A DNA stretch of 32,000 bases from Promethearchaeia archaeon (GTDB lineage: Archaea > Asgardarchaeota > Lokiarchaeia > Sigyniarchaeales > SOKP01): NCBI GenBank assembly GCA_046497275.1, contig JAWOFX010000002.1:1-32000 (forward strand), read 5' to 3'. The translations under genes and the position numbers were made by a program. The notes under the pieces are model-generated. The model had not been told where the DNA came from and ran no database searches. It worked only from the letters and a program-made list of their open reading frames with translations. Of this stretch, positions 910 through 13,139 are shown in pieces. Every line of letters starts with the position of its first letter. The first letter of the stretch is position 1.

Positions 910-1452
910 ATGATTGAAGATGATTATAAATTAGATGACATTGACAAAAAAATAATAGAAATAATCCAAGAGGAACCTACGATTACACACACCGATATCG
1001 CGAAGAGAGTGGAACGAAGTCAACCTACAATAGGAATGAGGATAAATCGTTTGAAAGAACTGGGAGTATTGCAGTTCCAAGCAGGATTAAATCTCAAAAT
1101 TGCCGATATGTTTTATGCGCGAGCTGAAATAGTAACAGATCATCCCAATGAATTGTTGGATGAAATTGAAAAATGTCATTTCATGCTGAATGCATTTCGA
1201 TTAAGCGGAACAACTAATGTGAGTGTATTAATTGCAAATCCTAAGATAGCATTTTTGGATAAGCTTGTAAATACCAAATTTCGTAATAATCCTCTGGTAA
1301 AAGAAGTAAATATGAATATTATTACAGATGTGGTGGAAGATTTCGTCCTACCAATTGATCTGGATTTTAACGATTGTAAATGCGAATTGAAAGAAGAGTG
1401 CAGTAAAAGCATTTATATTGAAAATGATGAAGAATCGAAAAAAAGGGAATGA
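910..1452 (+). CDS. Lrp/AsnC family transcriptional regulator with a Cys-containing C-terminal tail
   Basis: LDDIDKKIIEIIQEEP...THTDIAKRVERSQPTIGMRINRLKELGVL HTH, followed by a RAM-like domain. Confidence 0.85.
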   Translation: MIEDDYKLDDIDKKIIEIIQEEPTITHTDIAKRVERSQPTIGMRINRLKELGVLQFQAGLNLKIADMFYARAEIVTDHPNELLDEIEKCHFMLNAFRLSGTTNVSVLIANPKIAFLDKLVNTKFRNNPLVKEVNMNIITDVVEDFVLPIDLDFNDCKCELKEECSKSIYIENDEESKKRE

Positions 1453-1598: not shown

Positions 1599-1937
1599 AT
1601 GCAAAATCTTCTTATTTCAGAATCAGTTGATTTATTAAAAACATTAGGAGATACAACTAGGCTTTCTATTTTACAGATTCTAAAAGAAGATGATGTTTCC
1701 GCATCGGAATTGCAGGATGAACTCGAAAAATCTCAGAGTACGATTTCGCAACACCTAAAAGTTTTAAGAGAGGCGGATTTAATTGAAGTAGATAAAGATG
1801 GAAGGATAAATTATTATAAGGTTAAGAATGCTAAAGTTTTTAAGATATTAGCCAGGATTAAGTCCTTTATTATCAAAACCAAAAAAGAAAAATTAGATAT
1901 TTTAAATAAAGCCCAAATCAATGATACTTTATTTTAA
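1599..1937 (+). CDS. ArsR/SmtB family transcriptional regulator
   Basis: LKTLGDTTRLSIL...SQSTISQHLKVLREADLI...DGRINYY; contains no Cys. Confidence 0.9.
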   Translation: MQNLLISESVDLLKTLGDTTRLSILQILKEDDVSASELQDELEKSQSTISQHLKVLREADLIEVDKDGRINYYKVKNAKVFKILARIKSFIIKTKKEKLDILNKAQINDTLF

Positions 1938-2062: not shown

Positions 2063-2617
2063 ATGAATCGGGAACAGTTAAAAACTGATGGTGGAGAGCT
2101 TCGAAAGATAATGCTATTGGGGTTAGATAATGCAGGGAAAACCTCCATCGTTTTAACACTCAAAGGAGATAAAAGTTTACTTTCCTATATGTCCTTAAGT
2201 CCAACAATGAATCATAATATTACAAATATTACTGTTTCAGACACTAAGTTCAATATATGGGATTTTGGAGGACAAGAAACTTACCGAAAAGAACATCTTG
2301 AAAATATGGAAGATTATATTGAAGGATGTAATAAAATTATTTATGTGATTGATGTCCAAGATTATGAAAGGTATGATATCTCCTTAACTTATTTAAAGGA
2401 TCTTTTAGTTTTAATCGATAATAGTTATGATAAGATACAATTTTCAGTTTTTTTACATAAATATGATCCAAATATTAAAGAAATAAAACCCAAAATTAGC
2501 GATAAAATTGATGAATTATTAAGTAAAGTAAAAGAAATCGTTCCTTCAGATATTGATTTAAAAATTTTCAAAACTACTATTTATACCACCTTTGAAAAAA
2601 CCCCTATATTTCTATAA
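2063..2617 (+). CDS. Small GTPase, Rag/Arf-like (Asgard type)
   Basis: G1 GLDNAGKTS, G2 PT, G3 WDFGGQ, G4 HKYD, G5-like KTTIY. HKxD and TxIY are Rag-like; GLDNAGKT is Arf-like. Confidence 0.9.
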   Translation: MNREQLKTDGGELRKIMLLGLDNAGKTSIVLTLKGDKSLLSYMSLSPTMNHNITNITVSDTKFNIWDFGGQETYRKEHLENMEDYIEGCNKIIYVIDVQDYERYDISLTYLKDLLVLIDNSYDKIQFSVFLHKYDPNIKEIKPKISDKIDELLSKVKEIVPSDIDLKIFKTTIYTTFEKTPIFL

Positions 2618-2779
2618 ATGAAAATCTATTTTTTAGTAATATAATTTCTACTGTTTCAGTAGAATTTTTTGATACAAATCCTTAAATACAAGAAAATCCT
2701 AAAAATATTCTAAAAGTAGTGAAAGTTTTAAATAATTTTTTATCTAAACCTAAAATAATAATATTCCTTTCTTCTATTA

Positions 2780-3667
2780 ATGACATCACTAATATTTCTC
2801 GTTGAAGATGATCTCGATTTTTTAAAAAGTATTCAGATGATATTAGAAGATGAGGGATACTCGATCTTAACTGCAAGAAATGGAAAAGATGCACTTCAAA
2901 AATTAAAAGGGCTAGATAATTTGCCCGATCTCATCATAAGTGATGTTAAAATGCCCGTTATGGATGGCTATGAATTTTTTAAGAATGTTTCAAATAATGC
3001 ACGTTTAAATCAAATACCGTTCATTTTTTTAACAGGATTATCTTCAGAAAAAAACATTCGTTTTGGCAAAATATTGGGTGTTGATGACTATCTGGTAAAA
3101 CCAGTCAAGGAAAAAGATTTAATAGCTTCTGTGAGGGGCAAATTAATAAGGAATAGAAAAAGTAGGGAAGTAATGAACTATGTTAATGAAATTCTCTTTG
3201 ATGGATCGACATTAAAAGCTACAATCGAGAAAAGTGAACTAGAACAAATTTGGATGATTTTTTTTAATTGGGATGACGTTAAAGGTCCCGAATTGAATAT
3301 TTTTTATCCCAAAGGAGATAAGCAATTCAATAAAAGAATAGAACAAATTGGAAATCAATGCTTTTATGCGATTAAAGTAATTTATGGAGATCAAAAAAAT
3401 ATAGAAAATGAAGAATATTTATTGATTACCCTAGAGAATATCAGTAAGAGAGCCTTCCTTTATTTCGATGCATACCCAAATCCAAAAACAAGATCTGGAG
3501 AAACTAAATTTATGATAAGTATTATTGCTCCAGAAATAACTTATCTGGATTCTATTCAGATTAAGAACTATTTTAAGAAAATAGCAGAAAAAATTAAGAA
3601 AAATGATGATTGGGATATTAAATCATATTGGGAAAAAATTAGTGATATCTTAACTTCTTCCCAATAA
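2780..3667 (+). CDS. Response regulator: receiver domain plus C-terminal longin/uDENN-like domain
   Basis: Receiver is intact: VEDD, D55 in LIISDVKMP, FLT, YLVKP. The C-terminal ~140 aa begin IFFNWDDVKGPELNIFYP; the longin call is from recalled motifs only. Confidence 0.85.
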   Translation: MTSLIFLVEDDLDFLKSIQMILEDEGYSILTARNGKDALQKLKGLDNLPDLIISDVKMPVMDGYEFFKNVSNNARLNQIPFIFLTGLSSEKNIRFGKILGVDDYLVKPVKEKDLIASVRGKLIRNRKSREVMNYVNEILFDGSTLKATIEKSELEQIWMIFFNWDDVKGPELNIFYPKGDKQFNKRIEQIGNQCFYAIKVIYGDQKNIENEEYLLITLENISKRAFLYFDAYPNPKTRSGETKFMISIIAPEITYLDSIQIKNYFKKIAEKIKKNDDWDIKSYWEKISDILTSSQ

Positions 3668-3729
3668 ACTGAAATTTATATAATCTTAATATAAAATCAA
3701 TTTTCATCTTATTATAGATAATATGTAGA

Positions 3730-4197
3730 TATTACATATTTATAAAATGAAATCTTTAATATCATTCTCATAAATATCTCAATATTCTTGTAATATAATT
3801 GAGATAATATGCGTTTAAAGAGTTATGAAATAAGATGAGTTCAAAAACAGAACTTGCAAAAAGAGATACTCCTTCTATACCTAACGAAAAATTAAAAAAA
3901 ATTCAAGGAGTGAAAAAACATTTAAGTTCCTTCTCAGGGAACACTGTGAATGCTAATTTAGAAATGGCTAAGGATTTACAAAATATTATAAAAAATTGTT
4001 CCAATTTAACAGGAAAAGAAACGTGGGGATATTGTAAAAGCCAAAGATATTTTATGAAACTTTATTTACAACATCTTAATTGTGAATAAAAAAAATAATT
4101 CATTTCATAAAAGTCATGAAATGAACCATATTTGTATTCTATTTGATTATTATTACTATTTTCTTTGAAATCGTCAAAAACATCAAATTTTAGAGGA
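3730..4197 (+). repeat. Copy 1 of a ~470-bp diverged direct repeat
   Basis: Shares TATTACATAT, TATCATTCTCATAA, ATGAGTTCAAAA, a 126-nt core (114/126 identical) and TTGAAATCGTCAAAAA in the same order with 8001-8484. Confidence 0.85.
3835..4089 (+). CDS. Hypothetical small protein (84 aa, or 41 aa from the ATG at 3964)
   Basis: Open frame; the last 41 codons are conserved in the second repeat copy. Confidence 0.45.
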   Translation: MSSKTELAKRDTPSIPNEKLKKIQGVKKHLSSFSGNTVNANLEMAKDLQNIIKNCSNLTGKETWGYCKSQRYFMKLYLQHLNCE

Positions 4198-4464
4198 AAC
4201 GGAGAATATTTGCTTTTTACCTTAGAGAACTTGGAAAAAAGAACTTTTGTTTATTTTGATGGCTTCCCGAACCCAAAAAGCCGTTCTGGAGAGATTAAAT
4301 TTATGATTGGTGTTATCGCTCCCGAAATCACATATTTCGACTCTATTCGAATAAAAAATTATTATAAATCAATTGCAAACAAAATTAAGACTCATTCAAA
4401 CGTGGATATAAAACATTATTGGAATAAAATAAGTGAAATATTAAATTCTCCTCAACTACGGTAA
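4198..4464 (+). pseudogene. 5'-truncated paralog of the response regulator C-terminal (longin-like) domain
   Basis: About 59/86 aa identical to the product of 3407-3664. Homology starts right at the end of repeat copy 1, and the TTG start at 4165 lies inside the repeat. Confidence 0.75.
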
Positions 4465-4482
4465 CTAATATTAAGTATTTTT

Positions 4483-7400
4483 TTATATTTTAGGTAAATT
4501 AATGACGAATCGCGTTCCTTCAGATGGTTTTCCTTCAACCCGATTTTCAACCCAAATCTCTCCTTCGTAAAGATTTAATATCTTTTTAACAATCAAGAGC
4601 CCTATACCCATTCCCGCTTGTGAAGATGATTCGAGCTTATCTTTAAATAGTCTATCTTTAATTTCTTGAGAAATTCCATATCCATTATCTTCAATTTCTA
4701 TTTTGGCATATTTCTTTTTTTCTTTTTCAAGAAAGGAGACTTTCACAAATATTTGTTTGAGATCACTTTCATTATATTTAATGGCATTAATAAACAAATT
4801 TTCAAAGACATCCTCCAACAGATTGGAAGCTAGAACAGGAATCTTTTCTTCGGGGGCATTTATAGTGATTTGAATATCTTGATGATTATAAGAATTTATG
4901 ATATATTCTTTGGAACTTTTCAAAATTGATATGAGATCCAAGGGAATCTCTTTTTTATCTTTAATATCAATTTGGGATAATCTTTGAATATTTTTAATCA
5001 ATTTAAAAGATTTTGAAGTTTGCTCTATTGTATTATCTATATACTCTTTTAATTTTTCATTCTTATCTTGATTATGTAAAATATTCGATGCAAGTTCCAT
5101 TGAGCTTAAAATTACTTGAAGGATATTTCGCATATCATGAGTAAAAAGATCTTTGTATAGTTGCAATTGATTATATGCATCTCTAATCTTTTCTTCAGAC
5201 TTTTTTAGGGCTTGTTCTGCGTTTTTACGTTCTGTAATATTATAGAATGTTATAACCGTTCCATCGATAATATTATCTTCGGTTCTATAGAGATTTATTC
5301 GCATTCTATACCATTTATTATCTTTAGTTTCAAGATCCTTTTCTATTGATTCCAATTCTTCCAAAACTTTAGTCGCATCTTCGGAAATCTTATGATATTG
5401 GAGAGTTGATGCAATGTCTGAGATTGGTCGTCCAATATCCGAATCTATTAAGTTATAAATATCGGTAGCTGTGGGAGTATATCTTTTGATTTTTAAATCA
5501 CTATCAAGAAAGATAGTACCGATATCTGTACTATTTATTAGATTTCTAAGATCATCGTTGGTTTTTTTAAGTTCCTGGTTTTTCTCTTGTAATTCATTAT
5601 TTACAGTTGTTAATTCTTCGTTGAGGGATTGAAGTTCTTCCTTAGACGTTTGGAGTTCTTCATTAGTACTTCTAAGTTCCTCGTTCGATGATTGGAGTTC
5701 TTCATTAGTTGATTTTAATTCTTCATTTTTAGTTTCTAATTCTTCAATAGTAGATTGAAGATACTGTTTAGTTTGACTCAACTCATGTTCTAACTGCATT
5801 ATCCTTACCTTGCTCACAGTATCAATTTCTTCAGATAATTTTTCCTTAGGAATGTCAACAAGGTCTATATCGAGAGGTTCAAAAATTACTAGTAATAATC
5901 CTTTCATCGATTCAGGTTCTTTAATAGGTCTGATAACCAGATTAACAAAATTTTTCTCCCCGTTAGATTTAACTCCCACGTTATTTAATTCAATTTCCTC
6001 TCCTGTGACTGTTGCTTTTCTGATAGCAGTAGAAAGTTTAATCTTTAGTCCCTTCCGAGCCATGTTTATAATATTAACGGATGCTCTTCCTTCAGCAGGC
6101 TCTAAAAACTTACCAGTTTTCCCATAAATGTATAATATATCTTTATCTTGATTTATGAGGATAGATGGAGGATTATAATGCTCTAATAATTGTGTTTTAA
6201 CTATTTCCTGGTAATTGAGTGATTCGGGTTTTTTGGAAGATAAATCTTGATAATCAGGGATCTTAGAGATCGAATAATCAAATAAGGGGGGAAAGATATT
6301 ATAGTTGTCTTTATAAGCGTCTGGTGTTTGTTTATATTTAAATATTTTATTTGATCGGTCTATTTCTATGAAAAGACGTTTAGCCTCCATTATAGATTCC
6401 GATTTACCCAGAAGAAGATAACCATTCTGATTTAGGGCATAATGAAAAATATTTAGAAGTTTCTCTTGGATTTCTTGCTTAAGATATATGAGAAAGTTTC
6501 TGCAACTTATCAAATCTACATTGGAGTAAGGAGGATCACTTAAAACATTTTGCTCAGCAAAAATAATCATATTGCGTATTTTCTTTTTTATTTTGTGCAG
6601 ATTTCCATCTGATGTGAAAAATTCATCTAATCTTTCTTTAGATACATCTGCTGTGATATTATCCAAGAATCTCCCCCTTCGAGCAGTCTCAATCGCATTT
6701 GAATCAATATCTGTAGCGAAGATTTGTACTTTACATGATTTTTCATGTGTTTTCATATATTCCATCAGTAAAATGGCTATTGAATAAGCTTCTTCGCCAG
6801 TAGAACATCCTGGAACCCATATACGTATTAGATCATCTTGGGAATGAATATCAAATAGTTTAGGGATAATGTTCTTTTTTAAGGCATCAAAAGCATTTTC
6901 ATCCCTGAAAAAGTTCGTTACTCCTATAAGAAATTCATGAAATAAATTTTCTAATTCTTTCGTATTTTTTTCAAGATAATCTACATATTCGTTAAACTTT
7001 TGAATCTGATTTAAAACCATTCTCTTCTTAATTCTTCTTAATATCATGTTCTCCTTATATACTGAAAACAGATGACCAGTTTTGTTATGAATTAATTCAA
7101 ATATTTTATTTAAACCCTCTCTTATGTCCATCTCTCCAAAATCTTGTCGAATTTTTAACTTTTTATAGTAAGAATCAATGTATTCAATAATTTTCTCTGG
7201 AATTTTTTCTGGAGATAATATGAAATCTATTTTAAGATTATCTATCGCATTTTTAGGCATATTTTCATATTCTGCAGTTTTTGGGTCTTGAGCTATAGCC
7301 ATACCATTTACTCCTTTTATTTCTCTAAGTCCTAAGGTACCATCCGTACCTGTGCCTGAAAGAAGGATTCCTATCGATTTTTCTCCGAATTCTCGAGCCA

Positions 7401-7797
7401 TTGAGCGGAAGAGAAAATCTATGGGCATTCGCTGGCTACGTGAAGTAGTGAAGCCTTCAACTTTTATTTTTGAATCCTCAATGGATAATCTATGATTAGG
7501 TGAAATTACATATATAGTATTTGGTTCTATTTTCTGAGTTTCATTTATTTGGATAACATTTAAAGATGTGAATTTTCTCAAAATCTCATCTAATGTACTC
7601 TCATGGTTAGGATCAAGGTGTTGGACGAGTATATACGCAATATCATGTTTTTTGGGTATATTAGAGAATAGTTTTTTGAAGGCATCTAATCCCCCCGCAG
7701 ATGCCCCGATTCCAACAACAGGAAATTGATCGATATCATCAACCAAAACTTCTTTTTTTTTGGATCTTTCGATTGATTTATTTTTTATAATTATCAC
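4483..7797 (-). CDS. CheB methylesterase - CheR methyltransferase - coiled coil - PAS - histidine kinase fusion
   Basis: CheB: GIGASAGG, VQHL, LSGTGTDG. CheR: GVTNFFRD, WVPGCSTGEEAYS, ATDID, ISCRNFLIY. EELxSxNEEL heptads. H-box FTHDMRN. HATPase NAIKY, DNGYGI, GMGIGL. GTG start. Confidence 0.93.
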   Translation of the reverse strand: MIIIKNKSIERSKKKEVLVDDIDQFPVVGIGASAGGLDAFKKLFSNIPKKHDIAYILVQHLDPNHESTLDEILRKFTSLNVIQINETQKIEPNTIYVISPNHRLSIEDSKIKVEGFTTSRSQRMPIDFLFRSMAREFGEKSIGILLSGTGTDGTLGLREIKGVNGMAIAQDPKTAEYENMPKNAIDNLKIDFILSPEKIPEKIIEYIDSYYKKLKIRQDFGEMDIREGLNKIFELIHNKTGHLFSVYKENMILRRIKKRMVLNQIQKFNEYVDYLEKNTKELENLFHEFLIGVTNFFRDENAFDALKKNIIPKLFDIHSQDDLIRIWVPGCSTGEEAYSIAILLMEYMKTHEKSCKVQIFATDIDSNAIETARRGRFLDNITADVSKERLDEFFTSDGNLHKIKKKIRNMIIFAEQNVLSDPPYSNVDLISCRNFLIYLKQEIQEKLLNIFHYALNQNGYLLLGKSESIMEAKRLFIEIDRSNKIFKYKQTPDAYKDNYNIFPPLFDYSISKIPDYQDLSSKKPESLNYQEIVKTQLLEHYNPPSILINQDKDILYIYGKTGKFLEPAEGRASVNIINMARKGLKIKLSTAIRKATVTGEEIELNNVGVKSNGEKNFVNLVIRPIKEPESMKGLLLVIFEPLDIDLVDIPKEKLSEEIDTVSKVRIMQLEHELSQTKQYLQSTIEELETKNEELKSTNEELQSSNEELRSTNEELQTSKEELQSLNEELTTVNNELQEKNQELKKTNDDLRNLINSTDIGTIFLDSDLKIKRYTPTATDIYNLIDSDIGRPISDIASTLQYHKISEDATKVLEELESIEKDLETKDNKWYRMRINLYRTEDNIIDGTVITFYNITERKNAEQALKKSEEKIRDAYNQLQLYKDLFTHDMRNILQVILSSMELASNILHNQDKNEKLKEYIDNTIEQTSKSFKLIKNIQRLSQIDIKDKKEIPLDLISILKSSKEYIINSYNHQDIQITINAPEEKIPVLASNLLEDVFENLFINAIKYNESDLKQIFVKVSFLEKEKKKYAKIEIEDNGYGISQEIKDRLFKDKLESSSQAGMGIGLLIVKKILNLYEGEIWVENRVEGKPSEGTRFVINLPKI

Positions 7798-8000: not shown

Positions 8001-8484
8001 TATTACATATGTGTAAAATCCAATCATTTATATCATTCTCATAAGTATTGAGATGTTCTTTTGTATAATTACGATAATTTATCCCCATAATCAGAAAAAT
8101 ATATCATTCATCATGAGTTCAAAATCCAAATCCTCCGAAAATAATATTAAGTCTTTAAAAAATAAAAAAAAGAATTTAAGTAATGATAAAAGTATTCATG
8201 AGTTGTCAAGAAATACCACTCAATTTAGTGATAGTGTTAATAATGAAAATTAAAAATGAAAAAAGATCTCCAAAATATTATAAAAAATTGTTCCAATTTA
8301 ACAAGAAAAGAAACTTGGGAATATTGTAAAAGCCAAAGATATTTTATGAAACTTTATTTACAACATCTTAGTAATGAATAATGATTCGATTTATAAAAGT
8401 CATAAAATAAACATATATGTATTCTATTTGTTATAATTATTATTTTTTTTTTGAAATCGTCAAAAATATTAACTTTTATATGGA
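8001..8484 (+). repeat. Copy 2 of the ~470-bp diverged direct repeat
   Basis: Collinear with 3730-4197, sharing the same anchors. Confidence 0.85.
8256..8381 (+). CDS. 41-aa micro-ORF MKKDLQNIIKNCSNLTRKETWEYCKSQRYFMKLYLQHLSNE (not in the ORF track)
   Basis: Same length as, and 36/41 aa identical to, the ORF at 3964-4089. Confidence 0.5.
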   Translation: MKKDLQNIIKNCSNLTRKETWEYCKSQRYFMKLYLQHLSNE

Positions 8485-8806: not shown

Positions 8807-10519
8807 CTAGTAATATTTTTTGATTTCTTGGATAACTAGATTTATGAGATCTTTTGGAGATTTCACAGGATAAAACGAAACATTATTTAGTAAATCCTTA
8901 AATTTATTTTTAGGTATTTTTTTTGAACCAATGAAGAAACCTACGACTTTATGCCCTTGTTTACTTAAATTTAAAAAACTTCTTTTCGAGCTACTCCAAT
9001 TATAAATCCCGAAATCTGTTATAATAAATACCAAAACTTTTTTATCAGCCTTATCGCATTGTTTTATTATTTTCTTTGTGGGTAAAACTGTTCCTCCCCC
9101 TTGATAAGTGAGGAGTGTTTTTTCTGCCTTCCTAAAATCTGAAGTCCAATCGCTCACATCTGCTTTATTTGAAAAATTGATCACACTAAATTTTACCCCT
9201 CTCTTAGCAGCATAATGAAGAGATGCGAACGCTGCTATCAATGCAGTATGATAAGGGCCTTTTCCTTGGTCTGTCTTAGCAGTATAACGCCATCCCATTG
9301 ATCCAGAAGAATCTAAGACAATCAATAGATCTGGAATTTCTTGTTCCTCAAAATGACCAGGTCCCAATTTATAGGCCCATTTGCGAGTCGTGATATTTGG
9401 AATAATAATCGGACTATTTAATAAAGATTGTATAATATCTAATTCTTCAATAGGATCTCCAATTCTCCATACTTCTGGATAAACGGGAACTTGACCCCCG
9501 GGTTTTTCCTCATAAATCCGGATTTGTATCAAATTTTTAGCTTTTCCCCTATACCATGTTGCTAATGGATCCCCCTCAATCATTATTCCCGCTTGAGTTG
9601 CTGGAGCTCCAAATTCCGAATAATTTACATCTTTTGCAAATTCTTCAGATTTTTGTTTTAATTTATCCGTATTTTCTTTATCTAATTTATCTGAATTCTT
9701 ACTTTCGAGAGGATTATCCATAATCTCTAAGATATCATCGGGAATTTCAATATAAGATTGCCCTTTTCCCGGGGCTTCCCTTAAAGATTTACCTTTTTCT
9801 GATTTTAATCCTTTCCCAACAAGATTGAAAGTATCTTTTATCAAATCGTTCAGATAATAGGCTATTTTTTCAACTTTTTTTTCCCATTTCGACTCATCAT
9901 AGAATTCCTTTAGAATGGTTTTTGATATTTTCTCAACCAAATTTTTATAGTTATCTGATAATTGCTCTTTTGAAATTTCAATATTTAATATCTTTTCATA
10001 AAGAGCAAGGAGAATTTTAGAAAAATCCGATAAATTATTTTCCTGTTTGATATGTTCATATATTGTTCTTAATTCCCACGATACTAATTGTGGATGTTTG
10101 GAATATGTGATTTTATCTATGACTAAATCAGCGAACAAATTTACGACTATAGGAGCAAAATTTTGATTAACGTGTTTCAATGCTGCTTTTAAAAGCTTTG
10201 CGTCAATATAACCATCATATGGACAAATTTGATAATGAGAAATTTCATGAAGGCTGATGATATAATAAAATTCAATATATTCTTGTTCATTTGAAAATAA
10301 TGGAGTATTTGCGAGATTCATTGTAATTTGCCATCTTTCTTCAGGATCTATATAAAAACCTTCGCGATGGGTATAATCAAATACAAAATGAGGTTCATTT
10401 AAGGGAGGATAATAATATTCTCTCAAAGATCTATTCCAACCTTTTTTAGCTAAATCTATTAGCTTATTTTCATTTTCTTGTATAAAATCAATATTTTTTT
10501 CGTGTTTATATTGACTCAT
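8807..10519 (-). CDS. vWA-domain protein with an N-terminal HExxH metallopeptidase-like motif (MoxR partner)
   Basis: LHEISHY near the N-terminus; MIDAS LDSSGS with GGGT and ITD; lies directly downstream of a MoxR-like ATPase. Confidence 0.85.
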   Translation of the reverse strand: MSQYKHEKNIDFIQENENKLIDLAKKGWNRSLREYYYPPLNEPHFVFDYTHREGFYIDPEERWQITMNLANTPLFSNEQEYIEFYYIISLHEISHYQICPYDGYIDAKLLKAALKHVNQNFAPIVVNLFADLVIDKITYSKHPQLVSWELRTIYEHIKQENNLSDFSKILLALYEKILNIEISKEQLSDNYKNLVEKISKTILKEFYDESKWEKKVEKIAYYLNDLIKDTFNLVGKGLKSEKGKSLREAPGKGQSYIEIPDDILEIMDNPLESKNSDKLDKENTDKLKQKSEEFAKDVNYSEFGAPATQAGIMIEGDPLATWYRGKAKNLIQIRIYEEKPGGQVPVYPEVWRIGDPIEELDIIQSLLNSPIIIPNITTRKWAYKLGPGHFEEQEIPDLLIVLDSSGSMGWRYTAKTDQGKGPYHTALIAAFASLHYAAKRGVKFSVINFSNKADVSDWTSDFRKAEKTLLTYQGGGTVLPTKKIIKQCDKADKKVLVFIITDFGIYNWSSSKRSFLNLSKQGHKVVGFFIGSKKIPKNKFKDLLNNVSFYPVKSPKDLINLVIQEIKKYY

Positions 10520-12437: not shown

Positions 12438-13139
12438 CTAGTTTGGTTTAAGACCTAAAAGTTGATTTAAATCTTCTATAACGAAGTCTGGTTGATATTC
12501 CCAATCCGAATATCCATCAGGATATTTTTCAAAGTTTCTAATAAGCAAACAAGCATGAATATTTGCCCTTTTCGCTGCGGAGATGTCCGAAATGGAATCA
12601 CCTATCATTAATGCATTAGACTCGTTTAGGTTAAAGTTTAATTTATTTAAAATCATGTTTATACCATCGGGTGATGGTTTCGCAATTTCTTGTTCATTTT
12701 CATCACCAAGCCCCAAGATTTCAAGAAAATAATGTTTTATATCGAATTTTTCTAATATATACTCTACTATATATCGAGCTGTGTTGGAAATTATAGCCAA
12801 TTTTTTATCTTCGTCTAATAATTTATCTAAAACGTATATTACATCAGAATATAACCTAATTTTTCCCTTTTTTATGAAATTCTTTCTAATTTTAAAATCT
12901 ATTGTATCAAAATGCTCCCAAAATTTATCATAGTCTTCTAAAAAAAGACCCCATTCTTTTAAAAGAGTTTGATACTGATCACCAGACATCCAAAATTTAT
13001 TTCTTCTGATTTTCTTGGGAATTGTGGTAATAGAAAAAGATTTTAAAGTTTTCACTAAGATTTTATCAAAATATTCTGGTGGATTTGGAATATTTAAAAG
13101 ACTATTATCAAGATCGAATAAATAATAATTAAATTTCAT
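12438..13139 (-). CDS. HAD superfamily hydrolase (phosphoglycolate phosphatase-like)
   Basis: FDLDNSL, ISN, KPSP, GDSISD. Confidence 0.88.
   Translation of the reverse strand: MKFNYYLFDLDNSLLNIPNPPEYFDKILVKTLKSFSITTIPKKIRRNKFWMSGDQYQTLLKEWGLFLEDYDKFWEHFDTIDFKIRKNFIKKGKIRLYSDVIYVLDKLLDEDKKLAIISNTARYIVEYILEKFDIKHYFLEILGLGDENEQEIAKPSPDGINMILNKLNFNLNESNALMIGDSISDISAAKRANIHACLLIRNFEKYPDGYSDWEYQPDFVIEDLNQLLGLKPN

Follow-up and report, generated by a model that had tools for sequence, protein, structure and literature searches.

How the small GTPases of Asgard archaea are regulated, and by which of their neighbours, is a question raised in concrete form by a 32,000 nucleotide stretch of DNA (hereafter the window) from a Promethearchaeia archaeon (Lokiarchaeia; Sigyniarchaeales; SOKP01). 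These GTPases are numerous and to our knowledge no native regulator has been identified for them. The window comprises positions 1-32,000 of the forward strand of contig JAWOFX010000002.1 (assembly GCA_046497275.1), is AT-rich (G+C 26-30%) and comes from a genome of 3.85 Mb that is 98.9% complete; for the nearest relatives of its proteins the source records give the names Promethearchaeota or Lokiarchaeota. Near its start the gene for a Rag/Arf-like small GTPase is directly followed by that for a response regulator in which a receiver is joined to a domain predicted to have the longin fold. We propose that this receiver-longin protein is a phosphorylation-controlled regulator of the adjacent GTPase, with GTPase-activating protein (GAP) action the favoured direction, and on balance we lean towards this reading. 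The features concerned are:

2063..2617, forward strand: Rag/Arf-like small GTPase, 184 aa (Pfam Arf 6.5e-24, Gtr1_RagA 2e-23)
2780-3667, forward strand: receiver-longin response regulator, 295 aa (Pfam Response_reg at residues 5-118, 1.7e-24)
2780..3154, forward strand: receiver domain, residues 1-125, with D10, D55, T85, Y104 and K107 (Pfam; codons checked)
3110..3247, forward strand: long alpha5 extension helix (residues 111-139) and lower-confidence linker (140-156), from the full-length AlphaFold2 model
3248..3664, forward strand: predicted longin domain, residues 157-295 (AlphaFold2, fold searches, column conservation)
3269-3274, 3284-3289 and 3491-3493, forward strand: codons of the longin motifs W164-D165, G169-P170 and R238, respectively

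A receiver joined to a longin fold

The pocket of the receiver is complete, with D10, the phospho-acceptor D55, T85 and K107 all present by residue check and Pfam match, and D10, D55, K107 and P108 are each shared by 90% or more of 67 relatives. An earlier note on this DNA, made by reading the sequence alone, had described a GTPase gene followed by a response regulator with an intact receiver and D55, and both the open reading frames (ORFs) and the residues bear this out. Beyond the receiver, Pfam matches nothing in the 2780-3667 product. Modelling of residues 150-295 by AlphaFold2, for which 97 aligned relatives served as input, gave a predicted local distance difference test score (pLDDT) of 91.8 and a predicted template modelling score (pTM) of 0.87. 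In the full-length model (pLDDT 90.9, pTM 0.85) the receiver is canonical and its last helix is extended to residue 139. DSSP assignment of the models places strands at residues 158-165, 169-176, 212-218, 223-233 and 241-250 and helices at 181-202, 255-273 and 280-293. This is the beta-beta-alpha-beta-beta-beta-alpha-alpha topology, with no helix N-terminal to strand 1, by which a longin domain is recognised, and it matches almost residue for residue the order of strands and helices that the earlier note had read by eye for residues ~157-295. A Roadblock/MglB-type domain was rejected on the grounds of the longin topology, the two C-terminal helices and the missing N-terminal helix.

Fold searches with the model are in agreement with this assignment. 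The best match found by VIA-align was PDB 8yqg (Z 14.4, root mean square deviation 2.4 A over 131 residues, 9% identity), and many solved longins scored between Z 10 and 14. Chains of FLCN-FNIP2 complexes reached Z 12.3-13.1, Lst4 Z 12.4 and C9orf72-SMCR8 Z 11.9, while DENND1B scored Z 10.5 and the TRAPP and Mon1-Ccz1 matches Z 9-10; the DENND1, TRAPP, NPRL2/3 and SNARE longins as a group lay at about Z 9-10.5. Against the reviewed UniProt models the top Foldseek matches were SMCR8, C9orf72, DENND11 and NPRL2, and several matches among the AlphaFold DB clusters are named 'Folliculin/SMCR8 longin domain-containing protein'. Searches of PDB sequences, made both with the domain alone and with a 97-sequence profile, found nothing meaningful, so that kinship with the solved longins is detectable by fold only. 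On the evidence of the models, then, the C-terminal domain is a longin fold of the FLCN/SMCR8/C9orf72/NPRL2 type, and the earlier proposals of a longin/uDENN fold and of a closest likeness to these GAP-type proteins have both held up in AlphaFold2, Foldseek and VIA-align.

Longin motifs and the candidate arginine finger

It has been reported that the longins of FLCN, NPRL2, SMCR8 and C9orf72 carry a GP motif before strand 2 and a neighbouring arginine finger, and that this combination is absent from the DENND, TRAPP and adaptin longins and present in a set of Asgard longins (PMC12290439). The fingers of the GAP-type class so defined are SMCR8 R147, FLCN R164 and NPRL2 R78. SMCR8 R147 sits in the active site of ARF1, and W33/D34 of C9orf72 are essential for GAP activity (PMC8213707).

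The domain studied here has a GP motif (G169-P170) at the start of strand 2, as the GAP-type longins do. In an alignment of 97 relatives W164 is kept in 94, D165 in 77, G169 in 94, P170 in 91 and R238 in 75, the residue following the R238 column is usually G or S, and the other best-kept columns of the family are P177, F229, D230 and M245. R238 lies within the loop 234-240 between strands 4 and 5 (PNPKTRSG), where the earlier note had placed it, and as that note observed the arginine is retained in a paralogous fragment downstream (PNPKSRSG). When gapless counting begins at the first residue of each Foldseek alignment, W164-D165 fall on C9orf72 33-34 and G169-P170 on SMCR8 68-69. An hhalign comparison with a longin from the same genome that is positive for Pfam Folliculin set GP on GP and R238 on the arginine of its 'ARG' motif, at a probability of only 17%. 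R238 may be the counterpart of the catalytic arginine; this equivalence, drawn from the Foldseek ranges and this low-probability alignment, is a weaker one.

Distribution and gene neighbourhood

Residues 135-295 were searched against 1.84 billion cluster representatives, returning 156 clusters with E<=1e-3 and 101 with E<=1e-10; on sequence grounds the C-terminal domain is a real family and not a chance resemblance. The domain was found in 93 of 301 genomes of the phylum and is concentrated in two Asgard families, f1 (59 of 68 genomes) and f24 (21 of 21). A receiver is carried by 78 of 108 full-length relatives, two of which are kinase-receiver-longin hybrids. PAS, RsbRD_N, DUF1638 and TPR are found as other fusion partners and four relatives are direct fusions of an Arf/Ras-like GTPase to the longin that retain WD, GP and RG.

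The neighbourhood was surveyed over about 13 kb around 40 further sites, and counts refer to 40 genes that are not truncated by contig ends. Flanks of 6 kb are needed for this purpose because a kinase gene often intervenes and flanks of 1.5 kb miss the GTPase. Of the 40 genes, 27 have a small-GTPase ORF no more than about 6 kb away, against a probability of 0.14 that a random 13-kb stretch of the source genome, with its 51 small-GTPase ORFs, contains one; this upholds the expectation in the earlier note that the GTPase neighbourhood would be conserved. The commonest order in the family of the window is AsnC (divergent), ArsR, GTPase, histidine kinase (650-970 aa) and receiver-longin, often with spacing of only 10-60 bp, the GTPase here being an orthologue of the 2063-2617 product (E 1e-41 to 1e-58); in a second order a divergent kinase precedes the receiver-longin gene and a paralogous GTPase. 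The two helix-turn-helix (HTH) regulators of the window are:

910..1452, forward strand: AsnC/Lrp-type HTH regulator (Pfam HTH_24, HTH_AsnC-type)
1599..1937, forward strand: ArsR-family HTH regulator, with which the conserved cassette begins (Pfam HTH_5 1.5e-14)

An ArsR gene is found immediately 5' of the GTPase gene in 15 surveyed loci, and an AsnC-type gene at the edge of the cassette is also present in L003, L037, L043, L046, L057, L061-L066 and L072-L074.

This conservation bears on an alternative in which the longin output has nothing to do with the GTPase and serves dimerisation or membrane targeting while the gene order is synteny inherited within one archaeal family. Most of the surveyed loci do come from one genome family, so that the counts are not independent, and for 13 of the 40 genes no small GTPase lies nearer than about 6 kb. 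Adjacency is nevertheless seen in two gene orders and in the two distant families f1 and f24, at a rate four times that of chance, and direct GTPase-longin fusions occur inside the same domain family. We regard an output unrelated to the GTPase as the least probable of the readings considered.

The neighbouring GTPase and a predicted complex

The 2063-2617 product has a P-loop at G20-T27 (GLDNAGKT), T48 in switch I, DFGGQ with Q71 as its glutamine, and HKYD at 132-135. Gln71 is invariant and the switch I stretch SLSPTMNHN contains no arginine. In the Ras superfamily, a site with a catalytic glutamine but no arginine in this stretch is one to which a GAP contributes an arginine in trans. Arf and Gtr1_RagA are scored equally by Pfam (84.8 bits for Arf, where the cut-off is 22.3) and the nearest solved relatives are the Asgard-type GTP-binding proteins 8yl2 and 8zla, followed by Arf6 and Arl proteins. 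Arf proteins have an amphipathic helix at the N terminus, usually with a myristoylated Gly2; the N terminus here, MNREQLK, has no Gly2. A G domain and, as the HKxD of G4, HKYD are present as in Rag/Gtr proteins, but the 184-residue product has no C-terminal Roadblock dimerisation domain, and judged from its sequence it is therefore best called Rag/Arf-like rather than Rag proper.

A complex of this GTPase with the longin domain, GTP and Mg was predicted, as the earlier note had suggested, with alignments for both proteins. The prediction gives weak support, with a median ipSAE of 0.58 (runs 0.48-0.67) against 0.00 for the best control; agreement of contacts between runs was at least 97% and the pLDDT of the partner at least 87. 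Of 80 solved complexes 58 reached the mark for this score, as did 2 of 110 mismatched pairs, and a score of 0.60 or less was given by only 7 of those 80 solved complexes and by both of the mismatches that passed. The pass may also reflect likeness to the solved C9orf72-SMCR8-ARF1 and FLCN-RagC complexes.

The sensor kinase and the direction of signalling

The kinase gene of the window lies beyond the receiver-longin gene and is convergent with it:

4483..7797, reverse strand: CheB-CheR-coiled coil-PAS-HisKA-HATPase sensor kinase, 1104 aa (Pfam), with the H-box histidine at about residue 887

The same convergence is seen in L003, L004 and L037. These three loci and the window form one well-supported clade on the family tree and have no internal kinase, the convergent CheBR-PAS kinase being present instead, whereas in most loci a kinase lies within the operon or adjacent to it. 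The CheBR-PAS kinase, which the earlier note had put forward as the possible input, is present in the lineage of the window, but in most relatives the kinase is one of ordinary type located within the operon. As a partner it is plausible but local, and the general partner would be an ordinary sensor kinase. A region of 21-nucleotide periodic repeats in the kinase gene (5611-5757, reverse strand) encodes an acidic, Leu-rich coiled coil (EEL/NEEL) between CheR and PAS, and these repeats account for spurious Pfam matches of the kinase to Golgin and Rootletin.

Another reading is a reverse flow of information, in which the GTP-bound GTPase would bind the longin as its effector and act on the two-component pathway, either at phosphotransfer or through the ArsR/AsnC regulators. 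Bacteria offer a precedent in Myxococcus, where the receiver protein RomR together with RomX binds MglA-GTP (PMC9481161, PMC13408092), and the cassette keeps genes for two HTH regulators. Receivers normally relay the input of a kinase to the attached domain, however, and an effector role would leave the conserved arginine by the GP motif without a function; this direction seems to us very doubtful.

Proposed mechanism

In the reading that we favour, a sensor kinase, in the window most likely the convergent CheBR-PAS kinase, would phosphorylate D55. Phosphorylation would then change the dimerisation or exposure of the longin domain by way of the extended alpha5 helix. Acting probably as a homodimer, the longin would then bind the GTP form of the adjacent GTPase on its WD/GP face, and R238 would be inserted from the beta4-beta5 loop beside Gln71 so as to speed up GTP hydrolysis. 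The analysis establishes the domains, their fold and motifs, the family and the conserved gene order; binding to this GTPase, action as a GAP instead of an exchange factor or effector, the part played by R238 and the identity of the cognate kinase are inferred from these.

A number of observations weigh against this proposal. The Pfam families Folliculin (PF11704) and NPR2 (PF06218) do not match the protein at E<=0.1 or in whole-genome scans, there is no DENN domain, the protein ending at residue 295 straight after the longin helices, and the cassette holds no gene for a second longin subunit, a truncated fragment aside. The intergenic gaps around the GTPase and receiver-longin genes in the window are 126 and 162 bp, so that their co-transcription there is not certain, and the support drawn from the complex prediction is, as described above, weak. 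The conservation of R238 anticipated in the earlier note is found in most relatives but is not complete: the arginine is absent in 22 of the 97, and the syntenic relative L037 4464-5384 has a glutamine at this position and yet retains its GTPase neighbour. In the raw table a GTPase neighbour accompanies the arginine in 26 of 32 cases as against 1 of 8 (Fisher p = 6e-4). On the tree, however, the arginine was lost independently no more than three times, which leaves this comparison without statistical power.

Most longin domains, and most of those that bind GTPases, moreover, serve as exchange factors or platforms rather than as GAPs; DENN, TRAPP and Mon1-Ccz1 are examples, and these are also among the fold matches obtained here. 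On this view the longin would be an exchange factor for the GTPase, or would serve it passively as platform or anchor, and phosphorylation would control recruitment or activation instead of inactivation. The members that lack the arginine, including the one that has kept its GTPase, would be readily accommodated, and Swiss-Prot labels C9orf72 and SMCR8 themselves as exchange factors. Against this, the WD, GP and Arg motifs, described as specific to the GAP-type class and absent from DENND and TRAPP longins (PMC12290439), are all conserved in the present family and the strongest structural matches belong to the GAP-type class. It is because of these motifs and matches that a GAP-type action is favoured, and we consider an exchange factor or platform unlikely.

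Duplication remnants and related architectures

The region between the receiver-longin gene and the kinase, together with that upstream of the kinase, contains the following:

3730..4192, forward strand: diverged (73%) direct copy of 8001-8478, containing a small ORF at 3835-4089
4165-4464, forward strand: ORF of a receiver-longin 3'-third fragment, copied part 4191..4464, covering longin residues ~210-295 with the Arg kept
8001..8478, forward strand: conserved stretch lying upstream of the kinase gene, from which the 3730-4192 copy derives, homologous to L003 12438-13247

The fragment is 69% identical to residues 210-295 of the intact protein. At the DNA level 4191-4464 is a 71% copy of 3400-3664 and is joined directly to the copy of the kinase-upstream region. 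Taken together, 3730-4464 and 8001-8478 look like the remnant of a partial tandem duplication, and the junction would fit duplication of a unit made up of the longin 3' end, the kinase and its upstream region with later loss of one kinase copy. The fragment is closer to the relative P0009 (80% identity) than to its own intact neighbour, and therefore either the copies are old or one of them was acquired by recombination. Without a receiver and without strands 1-3 it is probably a non-functional pseudogene. Small ORFs are found in both copies of the kinase-upstream region (3835-4089, 84 aa; 8053-8253, 66 aa) and L003 has a 90-aa gene at the matching position 12550-12822; these may represent a conserved small protein or conserved regulatory DNA only.

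The L037 locus, on contig C300 of the same-genus genome G183, has two receiver-longin genes (4464-5384 and 9022-9954) that flank the CheBR kinase. The copy adjacent to the GTPase has lost motif residues (P170A, D230G, R238Q) and sits on a long branch, and the other copy keeps the arginine.

Further arrangements of the longin domain were noted. In P0131, P0150 and P0155, and in ORFs of 645-700 aa in many f24 genomes, an arginine-bearing longin is N-terminal and is followed by TPR repeats; this longin-TPR architecture occurs in nearly every genome of one Asgard family. Contig C172 of the source genome (L077 505-1917, reverse strand) encodes a 470-aa protein in which a longin is followed by a Rag-like GTPase part and a C-terminal domain. 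GP and an exact 'ARG' motif are found in the N-terminal longin, the protein scores above the cut-off of Pfam Folliculin (24.4 bits), and its GTPase part matches 8yl2 at 1.7e-32, making it a candidate for a second longin-GTPase switch in this genome, in this case within a single chain. By phmmer, which gives a lower bound, the source genome has at least 51 small-GTPase ORFs, about 6 receiver ORFs and 9 histidine-kinase ORFs, and with so few receivers and kinases the receiver-longin protein represents a sizeable share of the two-component outputs of the organism.

Comparison with known systems

The earlier note knew of no description of a link between a two-component input and a longin GAP. This does not stand, as Liu et al. 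(bioRxiv 10.1101/2020.10.19.343400, Fig. 5c) report many fusions of NPRL2-like longins with two-component parts in Asgard archaea and propose that Asgard growth is controlled by two-component systems with 'eukaryotic' regulators. The receiver-longin protein belongs with these fusions, sharing their two-component parts, GAP-type longin and phylum. In their text no arginine finger is named and no cassette of ArsR, GTPase, kinase and receiver-longin is described, and most such genes are said there to lie outside conserved neighbourhoods. Asgard longins of the FLCN/SMCR8 type with GP before strand 2 and an adjacent arginine, of the same structural class as the present domain, have likewise been described (PMC12290439; Traffic 2025). 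That study asks whether ArfR or Rag/Gtr GTPases are the partners of these longins and does not deal with receiver fusions or gene neighbourhood; in the family analysed here, gene order and fusion both point to a candidate partner.

GTPase-longin fusions have been listed by Tran et al. (PMC10933270) and Zhu et al. (PMC11914678). The former found gene order to be generally of no help in pairing GTPases with regulators in the cultured strain MK-D1, and the latter, in a structural search for Asgard Arf GAPs and exchange factors, concluded that the regulators 'remain to be established'. No report of the ArsR-GTPase-kinase-receiver-longin cassette was found in the literature. Since the idea of a receiver-longin fusion is already in print (Liu et al.), the value of the present analysis lies in testability rather than in discovery. 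It adds the breadth of the GTPase neighbourhood, and it provides a specific pair for assay whose two members are small and soluble: the GTPase has 184 aa and the receiver-longin protein 295 aa, with an on-switch at D55 and mutable residues R238 and W164/D165.

Among prokaryotic systems the nearest parallel is that of MglA-MglB and RomR in Myxococcus, which likewise combines a small GTPase, a regulator of the Roadblock/longin superfamily and input from a receiver protein. MglB differs in having Roadblock topology and no arginine finger, MglA using an intrinsic arginine instead (PMC10933270), and in RomR the receiver is not fused to a Roadblock domain. The best structural match, PDB 8yqg, is the longin of a Lokiarchaeota Roadblock-Longin protein, for which no describing paper was found in the literature; it is dimeric in the crystal, and differs from the present domain in being fused to Roadblock instead of a receiver and in sharing only 9% identity with it.

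The eukaryotic longin GAPs are C9orf72-SMCR8, which acts on ARF (PMC8213707), FLCN-FNIP2, which acts on RagC, and the NPRL2-NPRL3 pair of GATOR1, which acts on RagA. The longin fold, the WD and GP motifs, an arginine in what may be the equivalent loop (judged from alignment ranges) and clients of Arf or Rag type with a catalytic glutamine are common to these proteins and to the pair described here, at 8-14% identity and with no Pfam match. The eukaryotic complexes are longin-DENN heterodimers in which the WD face (C9orf72) and the finger (SMCR8 Arg) are carried by separate chains. In the receiver-longin protein, by contrast, a single domain of 140 residues holds both motifs, there is no DENN domain and control would be exerted by the receiver. 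With face and candidate finger on one chain, a homodimer could do the job of the eukaryotic heterodimers. It is possible, and we put it forward tentatively as something we would not yet expect to be true, that a homodimeric, phospho-gated GAP of this kind, with a C9orf72-like WD face and an SMCR8/FLCN/NPRL2-like finger, represents the ancestral state, still undivided, from which the heterodimeric longin GAPs of eukaryotes derive, and that the cassette holds the first native pair of GAP and client for an Asgard Rag/Arf-like GTPase. If action as a GAP is borne out, the arginine-finger longin mechanism of the mTORC1 and C9orf72 pathways would predate eukaryotes and would once have been wired to His-Asp phosphorelays.

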